From a virus (lineage: Duplodnaviria > Caudoviricetes): DNA of 64,000 nucleotides. The stretch is from positions 32,001 to 96,000 of the IMG/VR virus record IMGVR_UViG_3300037067_004891; one strand, 5' to 3'. The position numbers and the translations under genes are program-made. The notes under the pieces were generated by a model. The model ran no database searches, had not been told where the DNA came from, and saw nothing but the letters and a program-made list of their open reading frames with translations. This document shows positions 20,913 to 31,474 of this stretch, in pieces. Within the stretch, counting starts at the first letter, position 1; every line of letters begins with the position of its first letter.

Positions 20913-21506
20913 AAATATAAAATTGGCGAATACTGTAATTAAACTGGCGAAAGAATTAGTTGCTGAGAAGGGGAAAGATGAAGCTATAAAATATTTCAAG
21001 GATAGATTGAATGAAATGGGAATACCAACTAATTTCGAAGATAATTTGTAAACAAAGTGCTTGGGAAATTGCGATTGACTATATCAATGGCGAAATAAAA
21101 ATATAAAATTAACAATTAATATATAAATAAAAATATTTTAATTTTAATGATAAACTCATTTTCCTCGTATAAAAATGTGTATAAAGGATTTAATGTGAAT
21201 GTATACACATCAATAGAAGAATCAAAAAAGAATTATGTCAATATATCCAGTCTAAAGGAATAAACTGTATAATAAAATAATAATTATAAAATGGAAAATA
21301 AACTTAAAACTATTAGTGAATTTTTATTAGAAAATTCTAAGGATAAATCAGATTTGAGAAGTTTGATTAATGATTTGATTTATAAAAAACAACTTATATT
21401 AAAAACTCCGATGATATGAATGTGCGTGTTATTAAAGAGGTTGATTTCAAATCCTTGATTGATGATATCTATATAATTTTAACTGGTATAATGGATAAGA
21501 AATAAA

Positions 21507-21911
21507 TTATAAAAGCTTAAAATCTTTTGTTATTTCATCAATCTTATCCGAATCGTCAGGCCCGATTGCACAACAAGTTATGGTTGGTACACCATTAAAT
21601 TCTGTCAACCCAGCATCCATTATTATTGAGCATGGAATATTTCGTCTTTTTGCTTCTTCATAAGCATTGACTACTTCAGCTAATGTATCGGCACTAACCA
21701 CTATTTTTTTATAAATACCATTTAACCATTTAGCCATCGGACTATCTTGTTCTACATGAAAAATAGCATCACCATATGATTCTTGACCAGCCCATACTAA
21801 TTTATCTAAAAACACTTTTAAACTGGCGTGTGAAGCTGCACTGCACATTTTCCCTTTCCTCATATTGAGGTCTTTACGTATTACAATAACTTGTTTGGGT
21901 TCTTTTTCCAT
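21507..21911 (-). CDS. pth2: peptidyl-tRNA hydrolase, Pth2 family
   Basis: 'KQVIVIRKDLNMRKGK', 'ASHAS', 'KKIVV', 'DAGLTEF', 'AIGP'. Confidence 0.92.
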   Translation of the reverse strand: MEKEPKQVIVIRKDLNMRKGKMCSAASHASLKVFLDKLVWAGQESYGDAIFHVEQDSPMAKWLNGIYKKIVVSADTLAEVVNAYEEAKRRNIPCSIIMDAGLTEFNGVPTITCCAIGPDDSDKIDEITKDFKLL

Positions 21912-22528
21912 AATAAAAACGTTTTTTAATATATAGTTAATAATAATTAAAATGTTTAATATATTTGTGTAAATAATCCTATTATGAAATCAAAAAGAAA
22001 ATATCCAAGTTATTGTTGTCAAGAATGTGGAGAATATAGGTTGGTTAGGTAGATTCATAGAATGGATATACTGTGGATTAATAAAACACGAATGTAAACT
22101 AAAATCTTAAATTTAATAATATATGTGTATTTATGTAACTGAAATAGACAAAGAAACATTTGATAGTTTTGAAGTTATTGGCGTATCTTTAGAACCTATA
22201 TCCAATGCCTTTAATTTTACAAGAAAATTTTATGCATCTTCTGATGAAAATCGTAAAAATAAAAACCCATTTAATATCAAATATGAAAAAATGATTGAAT
22301 TTTTTGGTGTTCCGAGTTTTAATGATGATATGGATTATTGGTGGTTTATGGATTATGAAGAACATGGATATGCTATATTAACTAATGAAATAGAAGGAAG
22401 TCAAATATATAAAGCAGTTTTATCTTCTGATAAACCTCAATCAATAAATGAATTTTCTGATAATATGGAAGCATTTTGGGTTGAATTGTTTACAATGTTC
22501 GAATCACCAAAATAATACCATTTTTTAT

Positions 22529-22921: not shown

Positions 22922-23131
22922 TTTGTATTTTTGCTAATATATATAAATAAAATGAATATGTGTTTATTTAAAAAAAAGAAAATAATCACTGAAAAAGTTG
23001 AAGAAGAATTTAATTATGCAACTCCTTATACAAGAGAGTTCTATAAATTTTTCTTGAAACAAAAAGATGCCGAAGCAAAAAATAATTGAAAAATAAATAC
23101 AACTTTTGTTTTTTTATTAAGTATAAAGAAT

Positions 23132-23181
23132 TACATTTGCAGAGTATTTGGAAAAAAGACGTGTTTTTTCCTTAATATATA
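23132..23181 (+). promoter_or_regulatory. promoter region of tRNA array: Bacteroidota -7 element TACATTTG (23132-23139) and TAATATATA motif (23173-23181)
   Basis: Match to the TAnnTTTG consensus and to the recurrent phage motif. Confidence 0.55.
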
Positions 23182-23208
23182 AAACAAATAAAACAGTAAA
23201 AAATAGAA

Positions 23209-23331
23209 ATGATGTTAAAGAGTTTTAGTCATATTAGTTCGATAGTTTCCTCAGTGAAACGCCATAAATGGTTTATTAGCCATAATGGGACTGGACTATA
23301 TTGTCTAAAATCTGAATTTCTTTGCTTGTAG
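23209..23331 (+). CDS. putative attenuator leader peptide (40 aa)
   Basis: MMLKSFSHISSIVSSVKRHKWFISHNGTGLYCLKSEFLCL*; contains CTGGACT complementary to the downstream terminator arm. Confidence 0.6.
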   Translation: MMLKSFSHISSIVSSVKRHKWFISHNGTGLYCLKSEFLCL

Positions 23332-23361
23332 AACACGAAAAGAACTCATATAAATGACAGG

Positions 23362-23393
23362 AAAGTCCAGACGAAAGTTTGGACTTTTTTTTT
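23362..23393 (+). terminator. intrinsic terminator/attenuator immediately upstream of first tRNA
   Basis: AAAGTCCAGAC-GAAA-GTTTGGACTTT followed by a long T-run. Confidence 0.85.
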
Positions 23394-23418
23394 GGTATAA
23401 TTTGTTCTTTGAAATGAT

Positions 23419-23506
23419 GGAGAGTTGGCAGAGTTGGTTGATTGCATCAGTCTTGAAAACTGACAAGCCCGTAAGGGCTTCGGGGGTTCGAATCCCTCAC
23501 TCTCCG
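23419..23506 (+). tRNA. tRNA-Ser(TGA)
   Basis: GGAGAGT/ACTCTCC acceptor, CTTGAAA loop, long variable arm. Confidence 0.95.
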
Positions 23507-23619
23507 CTTAATGTTCTTTGACGTATTGAAATAATTTTAATAGTTCGAATTAGTTTAGTTTATATTTAATTTGATAAATCGAACTTATCCATATTTTATA
23601 TATAAAAATAAAAATAAAT

Positions 23620-24384
23620 ATGGATAAGAACACATATCAAAATGTATTAAAATGGGCTAAAAAAATAAAAGCTATAAATTATCTTGGTGGTAAATGTGAT
23701 AAATGTGGTGATGATAATATTTTTCATTTAGTTTTTCATCATTTAGAATCATCAAACAAAGAAAAATGTATTAATAATTTAAAAAATAATAGATGGACTA
23801 TAATTGAAAAAGAATTAAAAAAGTGTCAATTACTTTGTAATAATTGTCATGCTGAAGTTCATTATAAACAAGATTTTTTAACTGCTTCGAGTAAGGATAC
23901 GGTTTTAAGAAAGATTAATAAAAATTTTTGTTTGGACTACAAAAATAATAAATGTGAAAAATGTGGATATGATAATAATGAACATGCTCTGGTTTTTCAT
24001 CATACAAAAGATAAAGAGTTTGAATTAAGTTGTATTAGATATGACATAGATTTAGTTGAGGTTAAAAAATTTTTAAAAGATGAATTAGATAAATGTTTAT
24101 TATTATGTAGAAATTGTCACGGTGAAGAACATATGGATATCATTTTTTTTGAAAAATATAAAAAAGAAATTTATAAAAAAGTAGAAAATTATAAAGAAAT
24201 ACAGAAAAAATTACCAGTAGATGATATAAAAAAACTATACGAAAATGGAATGACACAAAATAATATAGCTAAATATTATAACGCTTCTAAGGGGACTATT
24301 AGTGGTATTATAAGAAACATAAAAATGAAATATAATATGGGAAATTCGGCAATTGGAAGTCAATCTCTCTCCAAAAGAGAATAA
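23620..24384 (+). CDS. tandem HNH-domain homing endonuclease with C-terminal HTH
   Basis: Two C..CG...FHH...LC.NCH.E.H units. Confidence 0.8.
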   Translation: MDKNTYQNVLKWAKKIKAINYLGGKCDKCGDDNIFHLVFHHLESSNKEKCINNLKNNRWTIIEKELKKCQLLCNNCHAEVHYKQDFLTASSKDTVLRKINKNFCLDYKNNKCEKCGYDNNEHALVFHHTKDKEFELSCIRYDIDLVEVKKFLKDELDKCLLLCRNCHGEEHMDIIFFEKYKKEIYKKVENYKEIQKKLPVDDIKKLYENGMTQNNIAKYYNASKGTISGIIRNIKMKYNMGNSAIGSQSLSKRE

Positions 24385-24411
24385 GTGGTGGTTCGAGTCC
24401 ATCATTTCCCG
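24339..24411 (+). tRNA. tRNA-Trp(CCA)
   Basis: GGGAAAT/ATTTCCC acceptor; TCTCT-CTCCAAA-AGAGA anticodon arm. Confidence 0.85.
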
Positions 24412-24515
24412 CAAAAATGTTCTTTGAAGTATTGGGTTATTTATATTATGGAAAGTAGATGGTTACATTTTGTAACGGACTCAGATGAGTAATTTAATAA
24501 ACCCAAAAATAAAAT

Positions 24516-24589
24516 GTTGTGGTAGTTCAGTTGGTTAGAATACGACCCTGATAAGGTTGTGGTCGGTGGTTCAAGTCCACCTCACAACA
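24516..24589 (+). tRNA. tRNA-Ile(GAT)
   Basis: CGACC-CTGATAA-GGTTG; canonical D and T arms. Confidence 0.92.
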
Positions 24590-24599
24590 CATTTTTTTT

Positions 24600-24674
24600 G
24601 TCCTAATAGCTCAGTTGGTTCAGAGCAATTGCCTTACAAGCAATAGGTCGGTGGTCCGAATCCATCTTGGGACA
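24600..24674 (+). tRNA. tRNA-Val(TAC)
   Basis: ATTGC-CTTACAA-GCAAT; T-loop TCCGAAT. Confidence 0.9.
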
Positions 24675-24676
24675 CT

Positions 24677-24749
24677 GTGTCTGTGTAGTGTTGGCTCTAC
24701 AAAGTGATTGTGACTCACTTTTACGGGGATTCGATTTCCCTCAGACACC
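24677..24749 (+). tRNA. tRNA-His(GTG)
   Basis: AGTGA-TTGTGAC-TCACT; C discriminator; atypical D arm. Confidence 0.82.
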
Positions 24750-24787
24750 CACATTATCAATCATTTATGATTGAAGTTCTTTGACAT

Positions 24788-25029
24788 GTTGGTTGAAGGT
24801 TTTAAAATTTTCTGAAAGTAATCGTGAAAATTCGGTGAACTCTGAGATAAAACCTAATTTGGAAGTAAGTATAACTTACAGGCGTAACGCACATTTTCGA
24901 TTCAGAAAAACCATGAGCCGAGGAAGGGTCGGACAGGCACTGTGTGAGAAGTATTTATGAGTATGATTAGTTAGTAGTTGATGAAAGTATCTGGATGAAT
25001 AGTGTTTATGAGTAGGCATATGGGTAAAC
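24788..25029 (+). ncRNA. candidate structured ncRNA within tRNA array
   Basis: GC-elevated, no credible ORF; pairings TTTTCTGAA/TTCAGAAAA, GTAAGT/ACTTAC, GAAAAT/ATTTTC. Confidence 0.45.
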
Positions 25030-25114
25030 TCGTTTGTAGTTCAGTGGTAGAACAAGGGAACATCGTAAATGTGCTTAAATCCCTGTGTCGCAGGTTCGAA
25101 TCCTGTCAGGCGAG
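25030..25114 (+). tRNA. tRNA-like gene with 20-nt expanded anticodon loop (identity undetermined)
   Basis: TCGTTTG/CAGGCGA acceptor, canonical D and T arms, AGGGA-[20 nt]-TCCCT. Confidence 0.75.
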
Positions 25115-25130
25115 GTGACCATATGAAAAT

Positions 25131-25203
25131 GGAACGGTAGTAAAGTTGGTCAATACACCAAGCTGAAGACTTGGCAATAGTGGTTCGATTCCACTTCGTT
25201 CCA
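25131..25203 (+). tRNA. tRNA-Phe(GAA)
   Basis: CCAAG-CTGAAGA-CTTGG. Confidence 0.88.
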
Positions 25204-25208
25204 CAAAT

Positions 25209-25281
25209 GACCCAATAGCTCAATTGGTTGAGCCTCGCACTTTTAATGCGAAGGTTGTGGATTCGAGTTCCACTTGGGTCA
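25209..25281 (+). tRNA. tRNA-Lys(TTT)
   Basis: TCGCA-CTTTTAA-TGCGA. Confidence 0.9.
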
Positions 25282-25338
25282 CTTCGCACTATTTAGACCC
25301 ACAACTTTATAATATATACTAAAAAGAAATTATATAGT

Positions 25339-26241
25339 ATGTCTGTAAAGTTGTGGGAAAAATATGAAATAGATTTCATCAAAGAAAATTATTCAGAAAA
25401 CGGTGCGAAATATTGTTCTGAACATTTAAATAGAACAAGAAAAGCTTGTGTTAGTAAAGCAACTGATTTAAAACTTAATTATTTAAATTATAAATATAGA
25501 TTTGAACATTTAAGTATTATTGTTAAAGAATCTAAAACTAAGTCTGAGTGTGTGATAAAGTTAGGATTGTCTGCAAGATGTTCTGGTAATTTTCAAACTC
25601 TTGATAAATATATTAAATTATATAATTTAGATATTTCACATTTTGAATATAGTCATAATAAGATATTTGATAAGAAACCATTATGTGAAGTGATGATTGA
25701 AAATTCCACTTTTCATACAAGAGCTTTAAAGACTCGTCTTTATAAAGAAGGTATAAAAGAAAGAAAATGTGAGTTATGTGGTCAAGGAGAAGAATGGAAT
25801 GGTATGAAAATATCGTTAATATTAGACCACAAAAATGGTGTATCGGATGACCACCGTTTAGAAAATCTTAGAATTGTTTGTCCTAATTGTAATGCTGGAT
25901 TGGAAACACATTGTAGAGGACATAATAGAATGAGCAAACAAAAAGATAATTCTTTTAGAAAAGAAAAAGTTATAAAAGAAAAAAATATAAATAACAAACA
26001 TTCTAAAATATATTATTGTTCTTGTGGTAAGATTAAATCAAAAGAATCAAAAATGTGTTTAGATTGTCATAATAAAATCATTTCTTTTAAACAAAGAAAA
26101 GTTATACGTCCACCTTACGAACAACTCATCAATGAAATAAAAAGTTCGTCTTATGTGGCAACAGGTAAAAAATATAATGTATCTGATAATGCAATTAGAA
26201 AATGGGTTAAGTATTATGAAAAAAATATTAACTTTGTTTAA
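25339..26241 (+). CDS. HNH homing endonuclease
   Basis: CELCG...LDHKNG...ENLRIVCPNCN. Confidence 0.88.
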   Translation: MSVKLWEKYEIDFIKENYSENGAKYCSEHLNRTRKACVSKATDLKLNYLNYKYRFEHLSIIVKESKTKSECVIKLGLSARCSGNFQTLDKYIKLYNLDISHFEYSHNKIFDKKPLCEVMIENSTFHTRALKTRLYKEGIKERKCELCGQGEEWNGMKISLILDHKNGVSDDHRLENLRIVCPNCNAGLETHCRGHNRMSKQKDNSFRKEKVIKEKNINNKHSKIYYCSCGKIKSKESKMCLDCHNKIISFKQRKVIRPPYEQLINEIKSSSYVATGKKYNVSDNAIRKWVKYYEKNINFV

Positions 26242-26939
26242 TGTTATCATTTGAAGAATATATTTATCAGCTCAATGAAGGTTTAATAAAAACTAACCCT
26301 ATTGATAAGTCTTTAACGATTTTAAAAAAGTCATTAATAAACAATATTGAATACTGGTATGATTTAGAAATAAATAATAACAATAACACCTTTCAAATAA
26401 ATTTTGAAGGAGTTCTAAATGAAAATGAATTAGAATGGTTATTCAGAATATGTAACAATTTAGGATATTTTTGTTCTTTTTATTTTTTAAAAAAACATAA
26501 ATTTCCATACAGGGGATTTTCTTGGTCTAATATAGAAGATTTTAATGGAAAAGTGAAAAATTGTATTCATTCGGGTTTTTTATTTGAGTCCAAGTTTGAT
26601 ACTTTATTAAAATATAAACCGTCATTTGTATATCATGTGAGTGACGAAAAATATTTAGATAGGATAAAAAAACATGGTGTTATACCAAAAACAAAGAATA
26701 AAAAAACAAATCATCCAGAAAGAATTTATATAACTTTGAGTTTAAATAAAGCGGAAAAATTGATAGATACATTTAAAAGTCAGGATAAGATTAAAAATAT
26801 AAAAAATGAATATCTTATTTTTAAGATAGATTTGACTGATAAATATTATGATAATATTAAAATATTTAAAGACCCAAATATGGATGGTGGTTTTTATTTA
26901 TATGATAATATTAAACCAAATGATATAATAAAATTATGA
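26241..26939 (+). CDS. KptA/ADP-ribosyltransferase-like protein with capsid-targeting-like N-terminus
   Basis: MLSFEEYIYQLNE; 'YHVS...IKKHGVIP...HPERIY'. Confidence 0.55.
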   Translation: MLSFEEYIYQLNEGLIKTNPIDKSLTILKKSLINNIEYWYDLEINNNNNTFQINFEGVLNENELEWLFRICNNLGYFCSFYFLKKHKFPYRGFSWSNIEDFNGKVKNCIHSGFLFESKFDTLLKYKPSFVYHVSDEKYLDRIKKHGVIPKTKNKKTNHPERIYITLSLNKAEKLIDTFKSQDKIKNIKNEYLIFKIDLTDKYYDNIKIFKDPNMDGGFYLYDNIKPNDIIKL

Positions 26940-27140
26940 CAAAATTCGAATTAACACCTGAAGAAGAAAAACAGGTTGATAAATGGAAGAAAAAACAGCA
27001 AAAGAAAAATTCTGATACATTTACTCTTGGTGAAAGATGGACATATTCATTTACACCCACTGGATTAGGTACACTTAAATCAGTTCATGATAATTTGTTG
27101 GATGAAGAATTTACGATAAGTGGTACTGAAGATTGGTAGT

Positions 27141-27479
27141 ATGGAAGAAGAAACACTTGATATAATTCAAAAGATACAAGAAGCAAGAAATCCTAAGTAT
27201 TTCTTATGGCAAATTATCAAGAATATGGAATGGTTTGCCTCTGAGAAAATTGATAGATGGTCGATAGGTAAAAAAGATGGTATAGTTTATTTCGATTACG
27301 ATACAAAAAATCACATTTTATATTATGATTATTTTAAAATATATCAAGTTTTAAAAACGAAATATCATCTTAATGATCTAACTATTAATGAATTAATTAA
27401 GGGTATGGTGAGTGAACATTTCAAATTGAGGGTGGACACAACTATTTTTACGGACGCTTACCAATCCTACGGTGAGTGA
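27141..27479 (+). CDS. hypothetical protein whose C-terminus is encoded by a CRISPR-like repeat and spacer
   Basis: MEEETLD...KGMVSEHFKLRVDTTIFTDAYQSYGE*; VSEHFKLRVDT is read from repeat 1. Confidence 0.65.
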   Translation: MEEETLDIIQKIQEARNPKYFLWQIIKNMEWFASEKIDRWSIGKKDGIVYFDYDTKNHILYYDYFKIYQVLKTKYHLNDLTINELIKGMVSEHFKLRVDTTIFTDAYQSYGE

Positions 27480-27549
27480 ACATTTCAAATTGAGGGTGGA
27501 CACAACTCGTAAAGATTATTCGTGCTAAAGTTTGATGGTGAGTGAATAT
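27407..27549. CRISPR. CRISPR-like mini-array (2 full 36-nt repeats + 1 truncated; spacers 28 and 30 nt), no cas genes in window
   Basis: GGTGAGTGAACATTTCAAATTGAGGGTGGACACAAC at 27407-27442 and 27471-27506; partial GGTGAGTGAAtAT at 27537. Confidence 0.6.
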
Positions 27550-27574
27550 ATAAATTATTTATAAAACAATAATT

Positions 27575-27718
27575 TGGGGTGACCCGATTTGAATGGGTAC
27601 TTCCTGATTAAGGTGCTGTGACATTATCTTGTACTAATCTCACCCATCAACTAAAGTAATCAACTTTAGGCTATTATAAGGCTACTGTCAGTCGAGTTTT
27701 CCAGTTCCACCACACCCC
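27575..27718 (-). ncRNA. tRNA-like RNA with ~80-nt insert in place of the anticodon loop
   Basis: GGGGTG/CACCCC acceptor, GTGGAACTGG D-loop, ACCCA-TTCAAAT-CGGGT T arm; TATATTTG promoter element at 27746-27739. Confidence 0.65.
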
Positions 27719-27904
27719 AAAATATATGTTTATAGCAACAAATATAAAACATTTCATTCATATTTAAAATTAAAGTTTACATTAATTTATCACATTTGAG
27801 TTATACATTAAAATATTTTATATTTGCGACTGATATAAAATATTTACCTGTAATTTTTTTTATAATATTTCTTTTATTATTTTTGACTCATAAAATATAC
27901 AGAT

Positions 27905-28669
27905 ATGATGAGGACTAAGATAATAAGGAACAATATATTGAAATCTGCTGAAAAAATAGAAGCTGATTTTTTAAATATAGCTTCATGGACTGGTCAAGTT
28001 GAAGAAGGGTTATTTGATGAAATCGAAGAACATTTTTTTGATTATTTCGATTTGACAACAAATCATGACCAATTCGATTTTGATACATTTGAAAAATATG
28101 TTCAGGTTCAGAACTTTTTCCCTCATTTAGTTGGAAAAGATGTTGGTAGTGGTTCTTGGGTGAAAGTTAAATCCGATTTAGGATATAATGTATACTGGGC
28201 GAAAAAATCGAATAAGATATTATCAGTTGAAAAATTAACACGCAAATTAACTGGTATGACTAAGGTTAATAAGAACATCGAGTTGGGTGTTTTGAAGGGT
28301 AAAATTGAAGAATTGAATGAAATAAAAAAGGAAATCGATTTATTTTCATATTTATTAACCTTACCCTTTGAGATTCAATTTGTGAAAATATTAAAAGGTA
28401 AGAACAACTTTGATTATATTTTACCGAGTACTTTTGAAATGGTTGAAGATGTTACTATATATACCGATGCATTGATGGATGGTATGAATGGTGGTGCTGT
28501 GAAAGTTAAAGAACATTTCACCAGTGCGGATGAAGATAAGGTGTTCTACTTACAATCCAGAGGTATCAGTAGGGAGATAGCTGTTATGATGGTAAAATTA
28601 CAGCATTGTCATTTTGTTATTGATACACAAAAATTGTTTTCTAATTGGATGCAACCTGTAAAAAAATAA
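27905..28669 (+). CDS. hypothetical protein with SufB/SufD-like C-terminal helix motif
   Basis: 'DEDKVFYLQSRGISREIA'. Confidence 0.55.
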   Translation: MMRTKIIRNNILKSAEKIEADFLNIASWTGQVEEGLFDEIEEHFFDYFDLTTNHDQFDFDTFEKYVQVQNFFPHLVGKDVGSGSWVKVKSDLGYNVYWAKKSNKILSVEKLTRKLTGMTKVNKNIELGVLKGKIEELNEIKKEIDLFSYLLTLPFEIQFVKILKGKNNFDYILPSTFEMVEDVTIYTDALMDGMNGGAVKVKEHFTSADEDKVFYLQSRGISREIAVMMVKLQHCHFVIDTQKLFSNWMQPVKK

Positions 28670-29164
28670 AAATATGATATTAAAATTCAATTTTTTAAAA
28701 AGGTCAAAAAAGGTTATCGTTGTTGATAATTATAATGACGAACGGGTGATTGATGTTCTTACGATGGAACAGATAGTTAAAGCAATGAAATGGTATAAAT
28801 TACATAAAGATAATATTAATAAAATAGTTGCTGATACTGAAAAAATTTTTGCACCTTCTCTATTTGAGGATAAAAACGACCCTATGATATGGAAAGCTGA
28901 ATACTGGAAATGGTTCTTATTTAAATTTGGAATAATAAGATAAATATATTGTGTAACTAAATTTGTGTATATGGAAAATGGTTCATAAATAAGTACGATG
29001 CCGATAGTAAGGTGGATATTTTACTTTTGACACTAAGAAGTATCGGTACAAAAGAAAAACATTTCTGAAATCATAGGTAATTGTGAATAAAGATTTAGAT
29101 TTTTAGTTTGTAATTCATATTATATTTTAAAAATCTCGTTAATTTTTGATGAGGTTTTTCGTAT

Positions 29165-29238
29165 GTTCGTGTAATTCAGTTGGTTAGAAATTCAATCTTA
29201 TACATTGGCAGTCGTAGGTTCGAGTCCTACCGCGAACA
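29165..29238 (+). tRNA. tRNA-Ile(TAT)
   Basis: GTTCGTG/CGCGAAC; TCAAT-CTTATAC-ATTGG. Confidence 0.85.
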
Positions 29239-29244
29239 CAACAT

Positions 29245-29318
29245 TCCCCAGTAGCATAACTGAATTATGTATCTCACTACGGATGAGAAGATTGTTGGTT
29301 TGAATCCAACCTGGGGAA
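29245..29318 (+). tRNA. tRNA-Arg(ACG)
   Basis: TCCCCAG/CTGGGGA; TCTCA-CTACGGA-TGAGA. Confidence 0.87.
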
Positions 29319-29360
29319 CTTTTTAAAATATTTTTTTAAAGAAAAAATAATATATAAGTT

Positions 29361-29540
29361 ATGAAAGAATTACATTATTACCCCAATTTAAAGGGTCAGA
29401 GGAAGAATGGTTGGATCAGTGGATGGACACAACCAAAGGGAAAATTCTGGAAACGGAATGCAAATAAGAAATTAAGAAAACAAAACGTACCTGATGGTAA
29501 ATTTTATAAAAAAACATGGGGTTGGTTTGAGTGGTCTTAA
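29361..29540 (+). CDS. small basic Trp-rich protein (59 aa, not in ORF track)
   Basis: MKELHYYPNLKGQRKNGW...KKTWGWFEWS*. Confidence 0.55.
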   Translation: MKELHYYPNLKGQRKNGWISGWTQPKGKFWKRNANKKLRKQNVPDGKFYKKTWGWFEWS

Positions 29541-30009
29541 AAAATAAAAATATTTTATTATGGGAATGTTTGATAGGGTTATAGTAAATATAGGTATGCT
29601 TCCATTGAGTCATTCGGAAAAACAAATAATATATGATGCATCTAAAAATGATATTGAATTTGATTTTCAAACAAAAGATTTTGAGAATGTTTTAACTGAA
29701 ATTTATATCACTGATGATGGTTTATTGCAGATTAATGATTGGGAATATGAAACTGTAACATTAGAAGAAAGACCACATTCTGGTGCAACTGGTTTATTAA
29801 AAATGGCTGGATGTTTAAGAAGGGTCAATCAACGATTGGTTACTCAGGAAGATTACACGGGTGTTTTTAATTTTTATACATATTTTGAAAAAAAACTTTT
29901 TGAATTTAATGCCACATTTATACATGGAAAATTAGAAAAAATTGATAGGGTATTTGAGTAAAATGAAATAAAACGTGGAGTAAGAAAAGAAAAATTGAAT
30001 GATATATTT

Positions 30010-30100
30010 GGAGAGTAGCCGAATGTCGGTTAGTCGGGGCTGTCTGCTAAACAGTTGCTCGTTGAAAAATGGGTCGTAGATTCGACTTCTACACTCTCCG
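30010..30100 (+). tRNA. tRNA-Ser(GCT)
   Basis: GGAGAGT/ACTCTCC; CTGT-CTGCTAA-ACAG; long variable arm. Confidence 0.9.
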
Positions 30101-30106
30101 CTTAAA

Positions 30107-30292
30107 TAGGTAGTTGACGATTTGCAATAAGTCAAATACTTAGGGTTCTGGTATGGATAACGCACTGTCTTAATATTCAGCGTAGGCACTTTGCATTACG
30201 GATAAAATCGTAAGTAAATGGGTGTTTATCAGAGATGTTTTAATCGTTGCAATACGGTTGGGATGGTCAGTAAGAGGCTGACACCAGAATCC
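30107..30292 (+). ncRNA. candidate structured ncRNA downstream of tRNA-Ser(GCT)
   Basis: Closing helix GGGTTCTGGT/ACCAGAATCC enclosing hairpins TTACG/CGTAA, AATCGT/ACGGTT, GTCAG/CTGAC. Confidence 0.55.
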
Positions 30293-31474
30293 ATTTTTTA
30301 TTACTTTCAATTAACAAAGTCAAATCCAATTGATTTCATTTTTAAAATTCTTGATTCTTCTGTTGATAGAAGTCTGAATTTAGTCTTACTGTATAATTCT
30401 TTTTTAAATTCTTTAACTATTATAGTAGTTTGTGCTGGGTCTTCATAAAATAAATTATAAATTTTATTATGTTTAACAGTATTTGTGTCTTCACCGAAAT
30501 AAAATATAGACGAATCAAGTTTATTTCTAAAAATGTAAAGTGGTGACATATATGAGTTGTAACCTATTCTTTTATCATCTAATGTCATAAACATATCAGT
30601 GATGAACATATTAGGTGTTATATTTAATATAATAATTCTTTTATGCATTATATAACCAACCTCAACTATGTCCCATTTATTAATTACAATATTTTTTCTA
30701 AATCGAGTGGGATAAATGTTCTACTTTTAACAAAAAGTCTTTCTTTCATTAATTTAAAAATATAAACAAAAATAATTATTTTCTATCAATAAAAAAATAT
30801 TTATAAAATAATTCAAATATAATTGTAAATGATAAATAATAAAAAAATGCATCTAATAACAAAAAAGGTGTCCAAGGACTATATAAAACCACTGCTAACA
30901 TAATACAAGTTAACATCAACATTTTAGCAAAGTGCCATAAGTCAGTTAACCAAACCAAAAAAGTAGATGAACCAAAAAATTTTTCTCCTTGTTTGGCATC
31001 ACCATTTTTCCATTTATTATCATTAGACATTGACGGGTTCACCCAATCCAGAATTTTCAAATTTTTCAAATTATTAAATATGGATGTACCATAACGAGTT
31101 TTTAATGTATCCATAATAGCATTAAAGAAACCAGCTATTAATAATAGAATAAAAGATATCATTATTTATTTGATTGTTTTTTCACTTTTTCTATCGTTCA
31201 TCGGGTTTATAATATAAGCATAAATAAACAATAATAAAGCTAATAAACCAAAAAATATTCCAAATGGTATTATGAGATATTTGAATATTATTAAACCAGT
31301 ATAATAATATAAAGTATAAAATAAAAATGAAAGTATAGCTGAACCAAACATTTTAAGCATACCATACTTTTCAAATACTATATGAATAAATTTTTTCATA
31401 ATCGTTTTTTTTTTATTATATATTTAAAACAAAATATTCTTTTTTATATAAAAGAATAAAAATTTTTTATATCT

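Follow-up and report, generated by a model that had tools for sequence, protein, structure and literature searches.

We describe a candidate regulatory switch, a short leader and terminator placed in front of a phage tRNA gene array, in a 64,000-nt stretch of DNA (the window) from a virus of the Caudoviricetes (IMG/VR record IMGVR_UViG_3300037067_004891, a single virus contig of 421,673 bp with 25.7% G+C, of which the window comprises bases 32001-96000). This element is very probably a ribosome-mediated transcription attenuator of the trp type, in which a leader peptide would gate the tRNA operon. It has the parts expected of such an attenuator, namely a leader open reading frame (ORF) with start signals, regulatory codons matching the supply, a terminator and, in six of the seven families of cassettes considered here, an antiterminator. 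Besides this anatomy and its conservation, we found that leader and array match in seven families and that antiterminator complementarity recurs among them. A first-pass annotation, made from the letters alone, had placed a promoter-like element, a 40-codon ORF, a strong terminator and a tRNA-Ser gene 25 nt further on, all of which lie where it put them. The features of the locus are as follows.

23105..23139, plus strand: candidate host-type promoter, with TTTG at 23105-23108 and TACATTTG, an exact match to TAnnTTTG, at 23132-23139.
23150..23182, plus strand: phage promoter module GGAAAAAA...TTTTT...TAATATATAA, 33 nt long and 26 nt before the leader ATG.
23209..23331, plus strand: leader ORF of 40 codons plus TAG (ORF call), with an A-rich start context free of a Shine-Dalgarno sequence.
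23218..23283, plus strand: sensing codons 4-25 (KSFSHISSIVSSVKRHKWFISH), encoding solely amino acids that have a tRNA in the array.
23219..23241, plus strand: region 1, which in the minimum-energy fold of the full leader forms a long imperfect helix with region 2, of which it is the 5' strand (predicted anti-antiterminator).
23291..23313, plus strand: region 2, containing CTGGACT (23291-23297) and TTGTC (23301-23305), which pairs with region 1 or with the terminator 5' arm.
23355..23372, plus strand: region 3, GACAG plus the terminator 5' arm, which pairs with region 2 or with region 4.
23359..23393, plus strand: intrinsic terminator, with a 14-bp stem (23359-23390), GAAA loop and nine T (23385-23393), -16.6 kcal/mol.
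23419..23507, plus strand: tRNA-Ser(UGA), the first gene past the switch, 25 nt after the T run (ARAGORN and Rfam).
24339-25282, plus strand: tRNAs Trp, Ile-GAU, Val, His, Tyr-GUA, Phe and Lys, with protein genes interspersed (ARAGORN and Rfam).
29165-29319, plus strand: tRNAs Ile-UAU and Arg-ACG, within the array remainder 24339..30101 (ARAGORN and Rfam).
30010-30101, plus strand: tRNA-Ser-GCU, the last tRNA of the array (ARAGORN and Rfam).

The array holds 11 of the 12 tRNA genes in the whole record (in order Ser-UGA, Trp, Ile-GAU, Val, His, Tyr-GUA, Phe, Lys, Ile-UAU, Arg-ACG and Ser-GCU), the twelfth being a Met gene outside the window. Here and below, tRNA identities are ARAGORN calls, which missed odd tRNAs right behind the terminators of three loci (L002, L038 and L043). 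Codons 4-25 of the leader are restricted to Ser, Trp, Ile, Val, His, Phe, Lys and Arg (S, W, I, V, H, F, K and R), as the first-pass annotation had observed, and 20 of these 22 codons are readable by array anticodons under strict wobble rules. Its further claim that these are exactly the amino acids of the array did not stand, as tRNA-Tyr(GUA) at 25029-25115, called by both ARAGORN and Rfam, had been overlooked. The 22-residue run is the longest of its composition in the genome (the next is 18; six frames, 421 kb), and among 1320 short ORFs the leader alone has a run of at least 22; when the set is enlarged by Tyr, the run ties for the genome's second longest. All six Ser codons are present in the leader ORF, as are ATA and CGC, likewise as first reported. 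The CGC is the codon read by the array's Arg-ACG, and several of the leader codons are seldom used by the phage (CGC makes up 1% of its Arg codons; AGC, TCC and TCG make up 3%, 4% and 6% of its Ser codons).

The ORF likely starts at its second ATG (23212, giving 39 codons), as the first ATG is absent from relatives. Its start signals match those of the phage's other genes (361 compared), with the promoter motif 26 nt upstream and an A-rich, Shine-Dalgarno-free context; a Shine-Dalgarno sequence occurs in 5 of the 361 genes, with A-rich stretches at -10 to -20 instead, a pattern that together with TAnnTTTG boxes suggests a Bacteroidota-like host. A search for proteins of 22-70 aa among 5.8 billion proteins returned no homologue of the peptide. 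Given that length range, the leader could be a fragment of some larger protein, an origin that is unlikely because the same composition logic holds across families.

Arrays with leaders of this kind recur in other phages. Two relatives of 640-676 kb (G001 and G002) have 28 and 39 tRNAs, with three main arrays (A, B and C), each of which opens with a TAnnTTTG box, a promoter module, a mini-ORF and a strong terminator, the first tRNA lying 9-25 nt past the terminator in most of them. The three leaders divide the amino acids among themselves, with S/W/I/V/H/F/K/R in A, L/D/N/M/E/Y/C in B and G/A/Q/P/T/R in C. A tRNA set covering most amino acids would, the first-pass annotation had cautioned, make the codon match unremarkable; these relatives do have such coverage, but it is split over three arrays with their own matched leaders, which turns the objection into support. 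The window's own record has no terminal repeat and is shorter by a third than its close relatives of 640 and 676 kb, so that it may be incomplete, and we found no B- or C-type leader or array in it, an absence that this possible incompleteness makes uninterpretable. A scan of IMG/VR with the promoter module gave 62 loci, from which we retained all those with a short ORF and tRNAs behind the module. The cassettes outside family A are listed below.

L007:1855-1941 and L004:12140-12054: B leaders, with arrays of Leu, Asp, Asn, Met, Glu, Tyr and Cys.
L006:2218-2349 and L008:4677-4543: C leaders, with arrays of Gly, Ala, Gln, Pro, Thr and Arg-UCU/CCU.
L057: a third C-type cassette.
L022 and L023: family D, leaders rich in K, H, S, F and W, with arrays of Lys, Phe, Ser, Trp and His.
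L044: family E, leader with E, M and Q, and an array of Glu, Met, Gln and Gln.
L038: family F, leader with A, T, V, P, G and R, and an array of Pro, Ala, Thr, Gly, Val and Arg.
L043/L067: family G, a weak match, with an array of Cys, Lys and Asp.

Thus, as the first-pass annotation had proposed to examine, comparing leader codons with the tRNA repertoires of related phages shows a matched private leader for each array. The first 17 residues of the B leaders are nearly all L, C, N, Y, M, E or D, and the C leaders have a 21-residue run of T, A, P, Q, G and R. Per genome, a fraction of 0.53-0.88 of a leader's sensing residues is cognate to its own array, compared with at most 0.17 for the other two arrays. 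The match extends to individual codons and residues: Arg codons track the anticodon, family A combining CGC with Arg-ACG, and families C and F combining AGA/AGG with Arg-UCU/CCU; Val is confined to leaders whose array has a Val tRNA (A and F, not C); and Gln is grouped with Glu and Met in family E. Within the pair of B leaders the sequence is scrambled and the composition kept, with 7 of 7 replacements at cognate positions staying within the array set, which indicates selection on composition rather than sequence. Across the 13 cassettes the ORF is always kept, and so is the terminator (-12.7 to -22.2 kcal/mol).

To quantify the match, we took one representative per family and compared seven leaders with seven arrays over all 5040 permutations. 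The true pairing was the single best of the 5040, whether scored by sensing residues, strict-wobble codons, whole peptides or likelihood. Binomial p values for the sensing window range from 0.035 (G_L043, the weakest) to 2e-13, with 9 of 13 cassettes at or below 1.3e-4. As a control, we took 11 short ORFs that follow the promoter module without tRNAs; whichever array they are scored against, their cognate runs do not exceed 8, compared with 13-22 for the leaders in 9 of 13 cassettes. Past region 2, cognates are depleted (4/13, 2/8, 3/13, 1/8, 0/8 and 1/8).

The second recurring signature concerns the terminator. In the window, CTGGACT at 23291-23297 complements AGTCCAG at 23364-23370 in the terminator 5' arm, as the first-pass annotation had seen, and the pairing extends further, since after a 3x3 loop 23301-23305 pairs with 23355-23359 (5 bp). 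In six of the seven families (A-F), the ORF contains a 6-9 nt exact complement of its terminator 5' arm, in a sequence that differs by family, as follows.

Family A: CTGGACT.
Family B: GGCAGGG.
Family C: GCTGAGTG.
Family D: GTTCGGA or GCTCGG.
Family E: CTGATTGG.
Family F: CCATCGG.

Dinucleotide shuffling (one representative per family) gives p = 0.004-0.04 for these complements, and 5e-7 when combined by Fisher's method. In family G the automatic search gave a 4-nt arm match only; an 8-nt CTGATTGG, picked out by eye without a shuffle test, complements CCAATCAG, which covers 3 nt of the predicted arm and then the loop. The complement begins 3-12 nt past the last cognate codon, or roughly where a ribosome that has stalled there would have its front edge. 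From its end to the stop codon is 15-34 nt in families A-F and 1 nt in G, and from the stop codon to the terminator arm is 19-41 nt.

These numbers bear on the possibility that an unrelated ORF and a terminator serving upstream transcription happen to precede the array. Short ORFs are plentiful in AT-rich genomes, and codons 4-25 were picked post hoc with tRNA-Tyr overlooked; set against this are a run unique in the genome, a pairing that is the best of 5040, a combined complement p of 5e-7 and a design that recurs in 13 cassettes, so that we regard coincidence as almost certainly the wrong explanation. Improbable, too, is a leader that senses decoding with an output other than termination, such as pre-tRNA processing or stability, or Rho-type polarity. 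The codon match by itself shows only that translating these codons matters, and the tRNA precursors need processing at a site 25 nt from the terminator, which would suit such an output; yet every cassette has a strong canonical hairpin with a T run, and the family-specific complement to the 5' arm points to control of the hairpin itself.

We next consider how the leader may fold, using energy predictions throughout. The terminator lies 29 nt past the leader stop codon and 25 nt before tRNA-Ser, and is among the strongest in the record: on both strands of the 421,673 bp we counted 39 hairpins with a run of six T at or below -10 kcal/mol and 8 at or below -14 kcal/mol, the leader terminator included. 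The full leader (folding z = -3.3) is predicted to form a helix of 23219-23241 with 23292-23313 around two small hairpins, plus the terminator. In a transcript cut before the 3' arm, 23291-23305 pairs instead with 23355-23370, whether or not codons 8-24 are masked as if by a ribosome, giving the mutually exclusive structures that the first-pass annotation had anticipated. The duplex of regions 1 and 2 is predicted at -15.2 kcal/mol and that of regions 2 and 3 (7+5 bp) at -17.3 kcal/mol. Alternative 1:2, 2:3 and 3:4 folds are predicted in most cassettes, where region 2 would pair upstream while region 3 has yet to be transcribed, and with region 3 while region 4 has yet to be. The helix of regions 1 and 2 is predicted for the window, L001 and most other cassettes, not for L002 or G_L043.

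Close relatives with the same A-type leader allowed us to ask which parts of the element are conserved. A 26-nt terminator core matched exactly in two giant IMG/VR contigs (L001 and L002), and a metagenome contig (L003) is identical to L002 at the leader locus. The ORF is intact from the second ATG in all three, and all 4 ORF substitutions between the window and L002 are synonymous (expected synonymous fraction 0.20, p = 0.0016), so that the leader ORF, whose loss the first-pass annotation would have counted against its reading, is kept in three lineages. L001 differs by K4N and then by indels past codon 30, and its stop codon falls within one alignment column of the window's. Among these A-type relatives the ORF tail and spacer vary, in contrast to near-invariant promoter blocks and codons 4-30 and to a terminator that is identical in L001, L002 and L003. 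As read from the alignment, an invariant core with a variable tail and spacer is what a leader requires, unlike a functional small protein. L001 is predicted to adopt the same two fold states despite its differing spacer, with an antiterminator of 7+7 bp, and keeps the helix of regions 1 and 2 despite indels and a G-C to U-A change (one possible compensatory change). Further searches added little: a degenerate leader codon pattern in IMG/VR matched L001 and L002 only, a metagenome scan with the leader alignment found L003 only, contigs from four DNA runs (groundwater and landfill) gave the three known variants again, and no relatives were found in IMG/VR with the neighbouring gene (a 130-aa ORF, 22123-22515) as an anchor. 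No RNA sequencing run is listed as containing the locus.

This conservation also speaks to an RNA switch that binds tRNA directly without a peptide, in the manner of a T-box. The leader does fold well and its core is conserved at the nucleotide level; however, neither T-box RF00230 nor any other Rfam class is found in 23050-23430 at E up to 10, the L002 substitutions are synonymous rather than pair-preserving, and the amino-acid and codon logic requires a reading frame. Moreover, to our knowledge there is no precedent for a single RNA pairing with 6-9 different tRNAs. We consider such a switch very unlikely. Across the window as a whole, Rfam at the gathering score returned tRNAs only; in 23050-23430, searching up to E 10 added only sub-threshold, terminator-driven noise.

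Two promoter signals precede the leader. The 33-nt module would, judging by its distribution, be a general promoter of this phage group, as in other IMG/VR phages it stands before many protein genes and before every tRNA leader. Within the window's genome, AATATATA, with a T run before it, peaks 30-40 nt upstream of phage start codons, and a weight matrix built from 96 sites scores 13.9 at 23175, with 135 genome sites scoring at least 14. The gene-start motif (T run, TAATATATA and A-rich stretch) lies 30-40 nt before about 100 genes, for example at 21119, 21929, 23598 and 25312, and its longer form, GGAAAAAA..TTTTT..TAATATATAA, is common to dozens of IMG/VR phage contigs. The host-type block at 23105-23139 is kept in L001, L002 and L003, and each cassette family from B to G likewise has a TAnnTTTG box upstream. 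Since TAnnTTTG is not enriched genome-wide (770 found vs. 762 expected), it is this conservation that argues for a host-type promoter function. The distance from TTTG to TAnnTTTG is 23 nt, longer than the 19-21 nt of Bacteroides promoters. A sigma-70 consensus scan found promoter-like sites to be no commoner than in shuffled sequence.

The spacer between terminator and tRNA-Ser contains neither a TAnnTTTG box nor the phage promoter motif, so that tRNA-Ser seems to depend on read-through. A candidate promoter there (TATAAT at 23396-23401 with GTTCTTTGA at 23404) was rejected, as it is not conserved in L001 and fits neither promoter model; the spacer 3' of the terminator as a whole is likewise not conserved between window and L001. 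The motif GTTCTTTGA occurs directly before or after tRNA genes (23404, 23513, 24419 and 24776, plus strand), with 4 of its 8 plus-strand copies in the genome falling in this 1.4-kb tRNA stretch and one lying 15 nt before tRNA-Ser. Similar copies flank tRNAs of L022, L038 and the Flavobacterium phage immuto. It may be a processing signal, the other possibility being a promoter.

Alternatively, the leader might be a small gene of the usual kind, or an insulator, followed by a terminator that is constitutive; its peptide or roughly 200-nt RNA would have a function of its own, and the tRNAs would be expressed by leaky read-through or from unrecognised promoters such as GTTCTTTGA. The ORF has normal gene-start signals, the motif stands before tRNA-Ser and after three other tRNAs, and a gene with its own promoter motif has been inserted after tRNA-Ser, all of which such an arrangement would accommodate. 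It leaves unexplained, however, why seven unrelated leader peptides mirror their own arrays, why cognates end right before region 2, and why the leaders of six of seven families (A-F; the overlap in G is partial) carry copies of their own terminator's 3' arm. The B pair, which drifts in peptide sequence yet keeps its composition, the lack of any peptide homologue in the protein search and the unconserved post-terminator spacer also speak against it, and we judge it a poor candidate, with little chance of being correct.

The attenuator reading, which the conserved ORF, the matched cassettes and the recurring complements support much as the first-pass annotation had framed it, would work as follows. 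We infer from the sequence that the ORF is translated, which way the switch turns and what physiological trigger it answers. Transcription would start from the host-type and/or phage-type promoter (23105-23182), with the leader ORF translated as it is made. Fast reading of codons 4-25 would carry the ribosome onto region 2 (from 23291) and then to the stop codon, letting the terminator form; in an alternative off-state, region 2 would be locked to region 1 and the terminator (23359-23393) would form as well. RNA polymerase would then stop 25 nt before tRNA-Ser. Slow decoding of Ser, Trp, Ile, Val, His, Phe, Lys or Arg (CGC) codons would stall the ribosome upstream of region 2 with region 1 open, whereupon region 2 would pair with the terminator 5' arm and polymerase would read through into the tRNA genes, whose products would relieve the stall as negative feedback. 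Decoding could be slowed by codon mismatch between phage and host, host shut-off, amino-acid starvation or a tRNA-cleaving defence. The data do not single out anticodon nucleases of the PrrC or PARIS type as the trigger, and plain supply-and-demand feedback fits equally well.

Several observations weigh against this reading. The evidence is wholly computational, and only three lineages, all close to one another, are known to have the A-type leader. The antiterminator core is merely 7 bp here, weaker in register than the terminator, the helix of regions 1 and 2 is missing from the L002 prediction, and a ribosome stalled at the very end of the run would be in contact with region 2 already. Phe codons stay in the L001 leader, though ARAGORN gives no Phe tRNA in the L001 array, and the matches are weak in G_L043, D_L022 and B_L004, partly from uncalled odd tRNAs. 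Termination at a hairpin also presupposes that whichever RNA polymerase uses these promoters obeys such terminators. Finally, tRNA-Ser and tRNA-Trp are separated by a 254-aa gene (23620-24384) that has a promoter motif of its own at 23598. Because of that motif the remaining tRNAs could be transcribed independently, and the switch may now gate tRNA-Ser tightly and the rest of the array only partly. The gene overlaps the start of tRNA-Trp and is absent from L001, which makes it look like a mobile insertion.

Other features of the array and its surroundings were also recorded. Two Cys/His-rich genes sit inside the array on the plus strand, the 254-aa gene, whose product has a weak HTH match only, and 25339-26241, whose product has weak HNH matches below the Pfam cut-off. 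The tRNA at 25029-25115 is of an unusual long-arm type with C replacing U before the anticodon, and has counterparts at L002:4231-4317(-) and L001:4614-4699. Its anticodon is GTA in the window, GGA in L002 and L003, and GTG in L001, with the window and L002 copies identical apart from the anticodon, so that either the anticodon switches between close phages or the decoding identity is miscalled. After tRNA-Ser-GCU, a comparatively G+C-rich stretch (30102-30300, plus strand) without an ORF of at least 90 aa ends in a weak hairpin and T run at 30294, and has no Rfam match. Upstream, a peptidyl-tRNA hydrolase gene (PTH2; 21507-21911, minus strand; Pfam E = 3e-29) lies 1.3 kb from the attenuator and adjoins it in L001 and L002 too; its product may be functionally linked to stalled or dropped-off leader peptides. 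Elsewhere, on L067 (9718-10585, minus strand), past a G-type leader and tRNA-Cys, we found a GOLLD RNA (155 bits) in which a tRNA is embedded, as well as a group I intron. In G002, the 676-kb relative, ARAGORN called a tRNA with anticodon TTA, which would read the stop codon TAA (L009:1255-1328, minus strand), hinting at stop-codon suppression late in infection.

Among cultured phages, the Flavobacterium phage immuto (MW353175) has no such cassette at its few tRNAs. In phiCbK (JX100813), where a peptidyl-tRNA hydrolase is also annotated, annotated terminators lie directly before tRNA blocks: a frame with QFVRQIQVV precedes a Phe/Val/Ile/Gln block, and gp083 (45 aa), rich in S, L, P and K but also in A and T, precedes Pro/Lys/Leu/Ser, while the 100-150 kb region was uninformative. 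phiCbK thus offers a culturable test system.

Collectively, these findings make it likely that in large phages of several lineages tRNA arrays are demand-controlled modules, each autoregulated by a codon-matched leader that gauges decoding speed, and serve as a top-up when the host pool fails. Why and when phages use their tRNAs is a long-standing question, and the explanations offered range from compensation for codon usage to evasion of defences that cleave tRNAs. If a leader reports how fast the codons served by its array are decoded, the phage would be measuring tRNA sufficiency and responding set by set, and the question becomes testable by asking what stress stalls a given leader. From the composition of a leader one could predict what an unannotated or odd tRNA array contains, and the cassettes could be used as compact in-cell reporters for the availability of chosen tRNAs. 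A full-text literature search found no account of tRNA-gene attenuation by leader peptides, in phages or elsewhere, although such an absence is not proof. If the reading is true, attenuation would for the first time be seen to control tRNA genes, through a leader-peptide sensor more multivalent than any other known, and a textbook mechanism would extend to genes for translation-machinery RNAs, to viruses and to sensors of as many as nine amino acids each.

Of known systems, the T-box (RF00230) is alike in answering tRNA status by terminator/antiterminator control; unlike the phage leader, which lacks a T-box signature and needs a reading frame, it binds one uncharged tRNA directly, without translation. 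The closest counterparts in outline are the leader-peptide attenuators of amino-acid biosynthetic operons in E. coli and Salmonella (trpL, hisL, leuL and pheL), which share with the phage cassettes a short translated leader with regulatory codons, exclusive 1:2, 2:3 and 3:4 pairings of four regions, an intrinsic terminator before the first structural gene and read-through favoured by a stalled ribosome. There is no sequence relationship, and the phage targets are tRNA genes rather than enzymes, the phage leader has 6-9 amino acids instead of one, and the product, tRNA, acts directly on the sensed step, decoding. The attenuator of phenylalanyl-tRNA synthetase in E. coli (pheST, with the pheM leader) likewise controls a component of the translation apparatus and senses charged tRNA supply rather than a metabolite, but for a synthetase gene and a single amino acid, whereas the phage cassette would control the tRNA genes themselves. 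Finally, the multivalent attenuators of ilvGMEDA (Ile/Val/Leu) and thr (Thr/Ile) resemble the phage leaders in mixing codons of several amino acids in one leader, so that a shortage of any of them leads to read-through. They differ in that theirs are two or three amino acids from one pathway, whereas a phage leader has up to nine, joined only by their shared tRNA array, in sets that are re-partitioned between phages.

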